Virus record (IMG/VR): IMGVR_UViG_3300020429_000539
Coordinates: 44,263-108,262 of that record
Origin: a virus
Taxonomy: Duplodnaviria > Heunggongvirae > Uroviricota > Caudoviricetes
Direction: 5' to 3' (one strand)
Length of the DNA stretch: 64,000 bases
Shown: positions 21,223 to 23,085 of the stretch, one piece after another
Position numbering within the stretch: position 1 is the first letter of the stretch
Layout of the letters: each line of letters starts with the position of its first letter
The notes under the pieces: generated by a model
The model's database searches: none
What the model saw: only the letters and a program-made list of their open reading frames with translations
What the model was told of the DNA's origin: nothing
Program-made: the position numbers and the translations under genes

Positions 21223-21970
21223 TTATTCACTCAGACAATCGAGGTTGCCTTTCATCACTTCTTTGATGTTGCGAGTCTTTCGACCTGTTCTGTGGTCTGT
21301 TACTCGGTTCTGCAAGAAGTTGTACGTCCTTGCTTTCCCTGACCTTGAACCTCCACCAATTTGTTCCTGACGCCTTTCGTTATGCTGAGAATGCCTTTTT
21401 TCTTCTTCAAGGCTCGCAACACGCGAAGCGAGGATTTCCATGGCTTTTTGTTTGTTCTGATGCTGCGACCGGCCATTGATGAACACTTGAAGACCTGTTG
21501 GCTTGTGGGTCATCCGAACAGCCGAATCCGTTTTGTTCTGATGCTGACCACCTGGCCCACTTCCTCCTTGGGTCTTGATTTCGAGGTCGCTTTCCCTCAG
21601 GTACGGTGCCTGTGCCTTGAGGATAGGCATGACCGCAACACTGACCGTTGAGGTATGCTTTCTACCTCCCCCATTCTTGGGGCATCGTTGAACAACGTGC
21701 TTGCCGCCTTCGTTTTGGAACGCTTGCCAGACGCCGCGACCCTTGACTTCGAAGGCAAACCAGCCGTAGTCCGTTGACAGGAGTTCTGTTTTGAATCCAC
21801 GATTGGCTGCATAGGTCAGGTACATAGACCCAAGAGTTTCAACGAAGTCTTTCGAGTCATCGCCACCTTCGCCAAAGCGAATTTCAACGATAATCGCTGA
21901 GGGGTCAAAGACGCTCCTGACCTCGTTGCTTGACCTGCTGTTTGTTCATACGCTTGCTTTTCTTACCCAT
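21223..21970 (-). CDS. class I peptide chain release factor lacking domain 1, translated via a +1 frameshift (about 248 aa)
   Basis: GPGGQHQNKTDSAVR (GGQ motif), RTYNF, RVTDHR. A 21-codon first frame ends AGGAG-CGT-CTT-TGA-C; the +1 frame continues DPSAIIVEIRFGEGG. Confidence 0.85.
21904..21918 (-). promoter_or_regulatory. RF2-type programmed +1 frameshift site
   Basis: Internal SD AGGAG, 3-nt spacer, CTT TGA C, the same geometry as bacterial prfB. Confidence 0.85.
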
Positions 21971-22199
21971 AGCCATCTCCTTTACGTTTTGGGCACTCTT
22001 CAACACCGCCTAAAGAGGGGGCGGCGATATGCAGACCTCGGAATAGGGCTCAACGGGCTCCCCCAAATAGGAAAACTTGCCCGTTTTGCCAGAAAAAACC
22101 TTTCCCCTCGCTTGCGGCCTTTCATTCACTTGCTATGCTCTGTCAAGATGGGCAACGCTGTGTTGCTCAGAGGAAGCATTCAGTTCAAGGAACCGAATC

Positions 22200-23001: not shown

Positions 23002-23085
23002 CGGAGAGCAGCGGAGTCGAACCGCAAGCTTTGACACTCGCATTCCTTAGCAGGGAAGCCCCGTCGCCGTCAGGGTTTACTCTCC
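23002..23085 (-). tRNA. tRNA-Ser(GCU)
   Basis: TTCC-CTGCTAA-GGAA with a long variable arm. Confidence 0.85.

Follow-up and report, generated by a model that had tools for sequence, protein, structure and literature searches.

A phage release factor of RF1 descent behind a putative prfB-type +1 frameshift gate

What does a frameshift gate sense when the release factor made behind it and the stop codon within it do not obviously match, and why would huge phages need a termination factor that is tightly gated? Both questions are raised by a gene in a 64,000-nt stretch of phage DNA (the window), taken from a complete virus record (488,051 bp, terminally repeated) in which it is the sole gene with an RF-1 domain. 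Autoregulatory recoding has its textbook example in the prfB frameshift. The gene described here quite probably encodes a small RF1-derived factor behind a prfB-type +1 frameshift gate, with an output that would rise as UGA termination falls.

Gene anatomy and genomic setting

The first-pass annotation had described a prfB-style Shine-Dalgarno/CUU-UGA-C +1 site after a 21-codon leader, with conserved sequence continuing in the +1 frame, and this anatomy was confirmed on the minus strand (Table 1). The leader peptide, MGKKSKRMNKQQVKQRGQERL, is basic and rich in K and R, and a second in-frame ATG at 21976 directly abuts the AAGGAG motif, giving poor spacing. Shine-Dalgarno-like motifs were found upstream of 135 of 323 long ORFs in the same genome, compared with 43 of 323 at a control position. 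Beyond the shift site the +1-frame ORF begins with DPSAIIVEIRFGEGG and reads on through the GGQ motif, and taking CTTT as a single step gives a 248-aa joined product (P0001). With its AGGAG-CGT-CTT-TGA-C arrangement, the 227-codon ORF in the +1 frame, and a cassette conserved among homologs, the locus has the makeup of a prfB-type +1 site.

Table 1. Features of the release-factor locus and related elements, in window coordinates
Feature	Position	Strand	Basis or remark
Release-factor gene region	21223-21970	minus	sequence reading
Shine-Dalgarno AAGGAG, serving the leader ORF	21977..21982	minus	6 nt before ATG 21970; read from sequence
Frame-0 leader ORF	21905..21970	minus	ATG 21970, 21 sense codons, then in-frame TGA 21907-21905
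Putative +1 frameshift cassette AGGAG-CGT-CTT-TGA-C	21904..21918	minus	sequence reading
Internal Shine-Dalgarno AGGAG	21918-21914	minus	part of cassette
E-site codon CGT	21913-21911	minus	part of cassette
Slippery P-site codon CTT	21910-21908	minus	part of cassette
Gate stop TGA	21907-21905	minus	part of cassette
+4 base C	21904	minus	part of cassette
Hairpin, 7 bp	21884-21900	minus	begins 5 nt past the gate UGA
+1-frame ORF, release-factor domains 2, 3 and 4 without domain 1	21223..21906	minus	227 aa, then TAA 21225-21223
GEGG motif, residues 12-15 of the +1 part	21862..21873	minus	11 codons past the shift site
Codon-recognition loop VQRCPKNGGGRKHTS, residues 72-86	21649..21693	minus	sequence and alignment
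GGQ peptidyl-tRNA hydrolysis motif, residues 119-121	21544..21552	minus	G119, G120 and Q121 invariant in alignment
Amber-suppressor tRNA(CUA)	2280-2356	minus	Rfam-confirmed

No canonical start codon (ATG, GTG or TTG) was found in the +1 frame between the preceding stop and GEGG; the first is Met28, downstream of the GEGG helix tip, which is conserved. An internal start at a non-canonical codon, or reinitiation, was rejected on this ground, and also because the nearest ATT lies 21 nt from AGGAG and because CTT precedes the stop in all 97 homologs that require a shift, a set itself found by a CTT-stop search. The pattern [AG]GG[AG]G-N3-4-CTT-stop occurs four times on the two strands of the 488-kb genome, with a long +1 ORF behind this copy only; this, together with conservation of the cassette in 97 of 136 unique homologs, excludes a chance origin. 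The hairpin past the gate had a z of -1.2 against shuffled sequences, which was not significant, and was not kept in relatives. An Rfam search of the release-factor region returned flanking tRNAs only.

The gene sits in a translation island, with tRNA-Ser and tRNA-Gln genes, a DUF1508 protein, a class II aminoacyl-tRNA synthetase and a HisRS-like gene as neighbors; on its upstream side it is flanked by three tRNA-Gln genes and an ORF without annotation. Adjoining these three tRNA genes, a sub-threshold match to the tRNA-Sec model was seen (window 23003-23085, minus strand; 26.9 bits, E 0.024). The phage encodes 64 tRNAs, including a tRNA-Leu(GAG) that reads CUU, as well as a tmRNA, and its only RtcB gene lies on the opposite strand about 67 kb away (genome 133085-134212). 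Two amber-suppressor tRNAs(CUA) were confirmed by Rfam at 56 bits each, one within the window (Table 1) and the other at genome 40480-40552 (L289:181-253). A putative opal-suppressor tRNA(UCA) of 71 nt (genome 176826-176896) was called by ARAGORN only and was rejected, with no Rfam match even at E = 1. It is adjoined by a tRNA (L288:2401-2523, genome about 176900-177022; Rfam 51 bits) that carries a 56-nt insertion in the anticodon region.

TGA was the commonest stop among the 372 coding-like ORFs of the phage (175 ORFs), followed by TAA (142), with TAG the rarest (55). Genome-wide stop recoding was tried and rejected: ORF coverage, 0.877 with code 11, became 0.885 when TAG and 0.887 when TGA was read as a sense codon, and a Pfam domain ran across the TAG in none of 10 TAG-joined ORF pairs. 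A codon-usage test found coding-like sequence past the stop for 9 of 55 genes ending in TAG, 11 of 142 in TAA and 7 of 175 in TGA, a weak signal for TAG. The phage is treated as standard-code. A UAG gate would presumably be read through by the phage's own suppressors, which may be a reason for UGA at this site, and an RF1 derivative that no longer read UAG would fit with amber suppression.

A domain-1-less RF1 body with an altered recognition loop

The body is an RF1-derived class-I release factor comprising domains 2–4, with GGQ intact and domain 1 lost. In comparisons with NCBIfam profiles it scored 243-245 bits against RF1, 177 against RF2, 76 against PrfH and 29 against ArfB, all under the family cut-offs (RF1, TIGR00019 and NF001859, 423 and 400; RF2, TIGR00020, 370; PrfH, TIGR03072, 167; ArfB, NF006718, 100). 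The body is thereby RF1-like and not RF2-like (245 versus 177 bits). Sequence comparison with the PDB gave the same order, with 180 bits for RF1, 126 for RF2 and 48 for PrfH, and Pfam found PCRF at positions 98-194 (last half only) and the RF-1 domain. The AF2 model (pLDDT 89) superposed on ribosome-bound RF1 with a TM of 0.79-0.81. That the phage factor is without domain 1, as noted at the outset, was borne out by the RF1 profile match, spanning positions 104-334 of 347, and by the alignment to T. maritima RF1, covering residues 88-315; the sequence upstream amounts to the 21-aa leader only.

Against the recognized families, the protein has the GGQ motif and the domain 2/3/4 fold of RF1, and is without the cut-off score, the domain 1, and the PxT followed by Glu of that family. 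It falls outside RF2 by score and by its lack of SPF, and outside ArfB by score and by the presence of decoding domains 2 and 4. An identity as PrfH was also rejected, since the score is far under the cut-off, the match is restricted to residues 95-181, and the defining upstream rtcB gene, adjacent and co-oriented, is missing. For codon reading, the protein keeps Gln73, His84, Thr85 and the GEGG helix tip. In RF1 and RF2 the equivalent helix tip contacts the first base of the stop codon. GEGG-x-D at the tip is a feature of the whole family, and G12, G14, G15 and D17 were invariant in the homolog alignment (A1).

The recognition loop is where the protein departs from RF1, with CPKNGGGRKHTS standing in the place of PxT-E. 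Relative to the RF1 pattern VQRVPxTExxGRxHTS, the loop is one residue shorter, has PKN for PxT, and is missing the next Glu; HMMER aligned it both ways, either with Thr replaced by Asn and Glu lost or with Thr itself lost. The loop does have neither PxT nor SPF, as first annotated, but the PKNG type is not confined to this phage, being present also in three further protein clusters at 96% to about 55% identity (P0002, 96%; P0003, 58%; P0124). As judged from these sequences, the PKNG loop is a conserved but rare minor variant. Wider PxN(D/G) variants recur in homolog classes A, B and C (see below). Degenerate DNA patterns used to find more PKNG or PxNG loops in IMG/VR gave 0 matches in one case and 15 in the other, all 15 being false positives in non-release-factor sequence.

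The replacement of PxT-E by PKNG suggests an altered specificity at the second stop-codon position, and Asn, being both a hydrogen-bond donor and acceptor, could relax discrimination of the second base. Broadened bacterial factors risk termination at UGG (PMC7530605). A further departure was seen in four short members of the family (P0023, P0125, P0131, and P0180), which have a deletion of the PxT tripeptide region (as in VQRESKGRMHTS); these are candidates for codon-independent release.

Conservation of the gate among homologs

Homolog DNA was gathered from IMG/VR, metagenomes and MAG contigs, huge phages included, and parsed by script, resulting in 136 unique genes. The first-pass annotation had set homolog conservation beforehand as the check on the site, with in-frame homologs as the mark of a sequencing error; 97 of the 136 genes were instead out of frame, each with a CTT-stop +1 cassette, for which two fixed positions were seen. 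The gate stop was TGA in 64 of these cassettes, TAG in 29 and TAA in 4, and the +4 base was C in 58. An independently assembled homolog whose protein is 96% identical (P0002) had the same +1-frame reading, SVFD, upstream, while the cassettes of P0003, P0216 and P0126 were inferred solely from the +1-frame N-termini of the called proteins.

Class A, the clade that holds the window gene (ML tree, SH-aLRT 97), comprised 36 genes, window included, in which the CTT-stop usually lies 12 codons before GEGG (11 in the window). The cassette takes the form xGT-CTT-T(GA/AG/AA), with TGA in 23 genes, TAG in 12 and TAA in 1, and 22 of the 36 have TGT or TGC as E-site codon. In class B (61 genes; TGA 41, TAG 17, TAA 3) the cassette is found about 37 residues later, past the first helix, as ...RRGL-stop. 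Class C (24 genes) needs no shift and has one or two in-frame stops, nearly all TGA and mostly at positions where relatives have Trp. The other 15 genes were ungated, having neither cassette nor in-frame stop; some clade members are of this kind, such as L001 with its direct ATG start. Shine-Dalgarno-like purine runs preceded the cassette in 19 of the 36 genes of class A and in 48 of the 61 of class B, and the absence of such an element from about half of class A counts against a prfB-like gate. No conserved downstream stimulatory RNA structure was detected in either class, the mean z being -0.66 in class A and -0.15 in class B, which was not significant; in this the family resembles prfB.

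The gate stop and the loop did not follow each other. No co-variation of gate stop with loop type was found across the family, and most relatives carry an RF1-type PPT loop together with a TGA gate. PxN-type loops were paired with a TGA gate in eight cases and a TAG gate in two (L024 and L165), which is no significant preference against roughly two-thirds TGA overall. Moreover, the gate stop flips between near-identical genes, from TAG to TAA (L003 and L004), from TGA to TAG (L064 and L083) and from TAG to TGA (L106 and L116).

Several loci showed further variation. In the class B loci L050-L099 and L123-L180 (e.g., L098:2088-2106 and L150:1594-1612), which belong to more distant phage relatives, the arrangement is Shine-Dalgarno-xGT-CTT-stop, with the Shine-Dalgarno-like run encoded by conserved Arg-Arg-Gly codons. 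Class C includes L049, L055, L060, L065, L067, L073, L100, L101, L125, L131, L134, L164, L169, and L173, with readings such as ...RVG*KVE and ...G*LT...; the in-frame stops could reflect either recoding of TGA as Trp or a readthrough gate. At L007:2880-2960 (on a contig shared with L062), tandem cassettes, AGGGGG-TGT-CTT-TAG-C and then AGGGGG-TGC-CTT-TAG-C, stand in successive frames, and the gene would need two +1 shifts in a row unless its second leader starts at TTG. In L042, a member of the class A clade, the +1 frame opens only at GTT-TGA-A (1976-2000), and GUU_U may be a variant slippery codon there.

Class A cassettes were also present on five MAG contigs, and these hold the nearest homologs of that class from the genome collection; L208, L210 and L212 were binned as Pirellulaceae, L209 as Obscuribacterales, and L211, a 546-kb contig, as Bacteriovoracaceae. 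The binning is a weak hint of planctomycete hosts, or of phage contigs binned with them. The mini release-factor gene was found inside phage tRNA arrays in about 24 of the 60 homolog loci scanned (e.g., L005, L024, L074, and L092), and in L005 a tRNA-Leu(GAG), the reader of the slippery CUU, is immediately upstream of it.

What the gate may sense, and comparison with known systems

From the cassette we infer that frameshifting takes place at this site. Translation would start at ATG 21970 and proceed through 21 codons, until Leu-tRNA is on CUU in the P site and UGA is in the A site. Termination at this point would yield a 21-aa dead-end peptide, and a +1 slip onto UUU would lead into the body of the factor, which has lost domain 1, the RF3/L11-side domain. 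As at bacterial prfB, the weak UGA-C context would favor the slip, as would base pairing between AGGAG, three bases upstream, and 16S rRNA. Output would then be set by the slowness of UGA recognition, such that less UGA termination activity in the infected cell gives more factor. By analogy with prfB, the shift is expected to respond to RF2 activity, output rising when UGA termination is weak. The best reading is that the gate ties synthesis inversely to termination efficiency at the gate codon, in this case host RF2 activity at UGA-C. Since the gate stop in the family can be TGA, TAG or TAA, and flips in near-identical genes, the gate may not be tied to one host factor. A rule by which the product reads its own gate codon fails, given the PPT loops with mostly TGA gates and the stop flips, unless the specificities differ from that of canonical RF1.

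Among other readings, a true prfB-like autoregulation is possible, although on balance unlikely. The PKNG loop would make the RF1 chassis UGA-reading, and the product would terminate its own leader, set its own level and supply UGA termination to a phage with TGA as its commonest stop (175 of 372 coding-like ORFs). The loop has the length and part of the sequence of that of RF2 (xPxx-GGGRKHTS versus SPFDSGGRRHTS), the window gate is TGA, P0002 and P0003 carry the VFD signature of CTT-TGA-C, and an Asn in the place of Thr might in principle tolerate either A or G as the second base. However, Gln73, the RF1-type third-base reader, is kept, only two independent lineages are informative with TGA being the majority gate anyway, PxN loops also occur with TAG gates, and PPT loops come mostly with TGA gates, so that gate and loop do not co-vary. 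The early proposal that the product reads UGA drew no support from the comparative data. A broader version has a distinctly low probability: the mini factors would have a shifted or broadened specificity, with the any-stop +1 gate serving as a termination-capacity homeostat for whichever stop is in the cassette. Here PKNG would read UGA, or UAA and UGA and not UAG, alongside the two amber suppressors, reshaping the cell's handling of stops without genome-wide recoding. It is just as doubtful that the cassette is a fixed attenuator that senses nothing and holds a low, roughly constant ratio of factor to leader, free release factor being toxic. Release-factor overexpression is toxic in bacteria (PMC12421855), and near-identical genes differ freely in whether the stop is TGA, TAG or TAA, as if any stop sufficed; yet TAA, which both host factors read, is rare (4 of 97), and this rarity together with the preference for a weak +4 C suggests a tuned competition with termination more than a brake. 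Promoter or ribosome-binding-site strength would also be a simpler control of level.

A stop-codon-independent rescue factor for stalled or damaged ribosomes, similar to ArfB or PrfH, with the UGA gate reporting translational distress, appears very unlikely. Like PrfH, the phage factor is without domain 1 (PMC1586002), its loop is altered, with the tripeptide wholly lost in the four short members, and the phage also has a tmRNA and an RtcB gene. Against this stand the PrfH score of 76 versus a cut-off of 167, with a match confined to the GGQ domain, the position of RtcB, distant, on the other strand and not adjacent upstream, and the conserved GEGG tip, Gln73 and His84-Thr85; rescue, as first suggested, was therefore left without specific support. 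A one-base indel in a decaying release-factor gene, or an assembly error, is scarcely credible. The view from a single genome cannot separate a mutation from a programmed frameshift, but the out-of-frame junction, with the same codon and CTT-stop, recurs in dozens of independently assembled genes at 45-56% identity, and the body is intact with all catalytic motifs present. Conservation of the gate at this scale rules out a sequencing artefact or pseudogene. The preferred reading, a gate that would couple synthesis of the factor inversely to termination at the gate codon, raises the prospect that a factor made only when host termination falters could serve as a regulatory part. In addition, the family is a natural set of loop variants (PxT, PxN, PKNG, and deletions) on one scaffold, usable for testing stop-codon discrimination.

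Literature searches for a frameshift-gated phage release factor found no published description. Recoded phages (Lak, Jade, Agate, and crAss-like; 10.1101/2021.08.26.457843; PMC7162821) are similar in being huge phages with their own termination factor, suppressor tRNAs and many other tRNAs; unlike them, the present phage is not recoded genome-wide, and in those reports RF1 and RF2 appear by name only, with truncation or frameshift unmentioned. PrfH (RF-H, with RtcB2), also a class-I release factor homolog, likewise lacks domain 1 and has a recognition loop that is non-canonical. Its gene directly follows an rtcB-like gene in the same orientation (PMC1586002), whereas the phage gene has no preceding rtcB, and the phage protein is only weakly similar to PrfH, in the GGQ domain only, and keeps the RF1-type decoding residues. 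Bacterial RF1 (prfA) is the best match in sequence and fold for domains 2-4, and GGQ and the VQR...HTS frame of the loop are common to both. The phage factor differs from it in lacking domain 1, in having PKN-G for PxT-E in a loop one residue shorter, in its GEGGxD tip compared to GTGGxE in RF1, and in a gene that needs a frameshift, there being no programmed shift in bacterial prfA (PMC12421855).

The closest parallel in gene layout is bacterial prfB. The E. coli site consists of a Shine-Dalgarno sequence, a 3-nt spacer, CUU, UGA and C (PMC12421855), and the phage site shares with prfB the Shine-Dalgarno sequence three bases before CUU, the in-frame UGA followed by C, the short leader ORF, the protein in the +1 frame and no need of a downstream RNA structure. 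In contrast, the phage body is RF1-derived and without domain 1, and the phage shift precedes domain 2, whereas that of prfB is inside domain 1. A 2025 survey of >12,000 bacterial genomes reported the frameshift as specific to RF2, with no RF1 counterpart and TAG never used; TGA was the gate stop in 98.6% of 8,164 genomes/genes (PMC12421855). TAG, never found in those 8,164 prfB genes (PMC12421855), is present in about 30% of the phage-family cassettes. The phage family thus puts what appears to be a prfB-type device on an RF1-derived, domain-1-less factor, at either of two gene positions and with each of the three stop codons.
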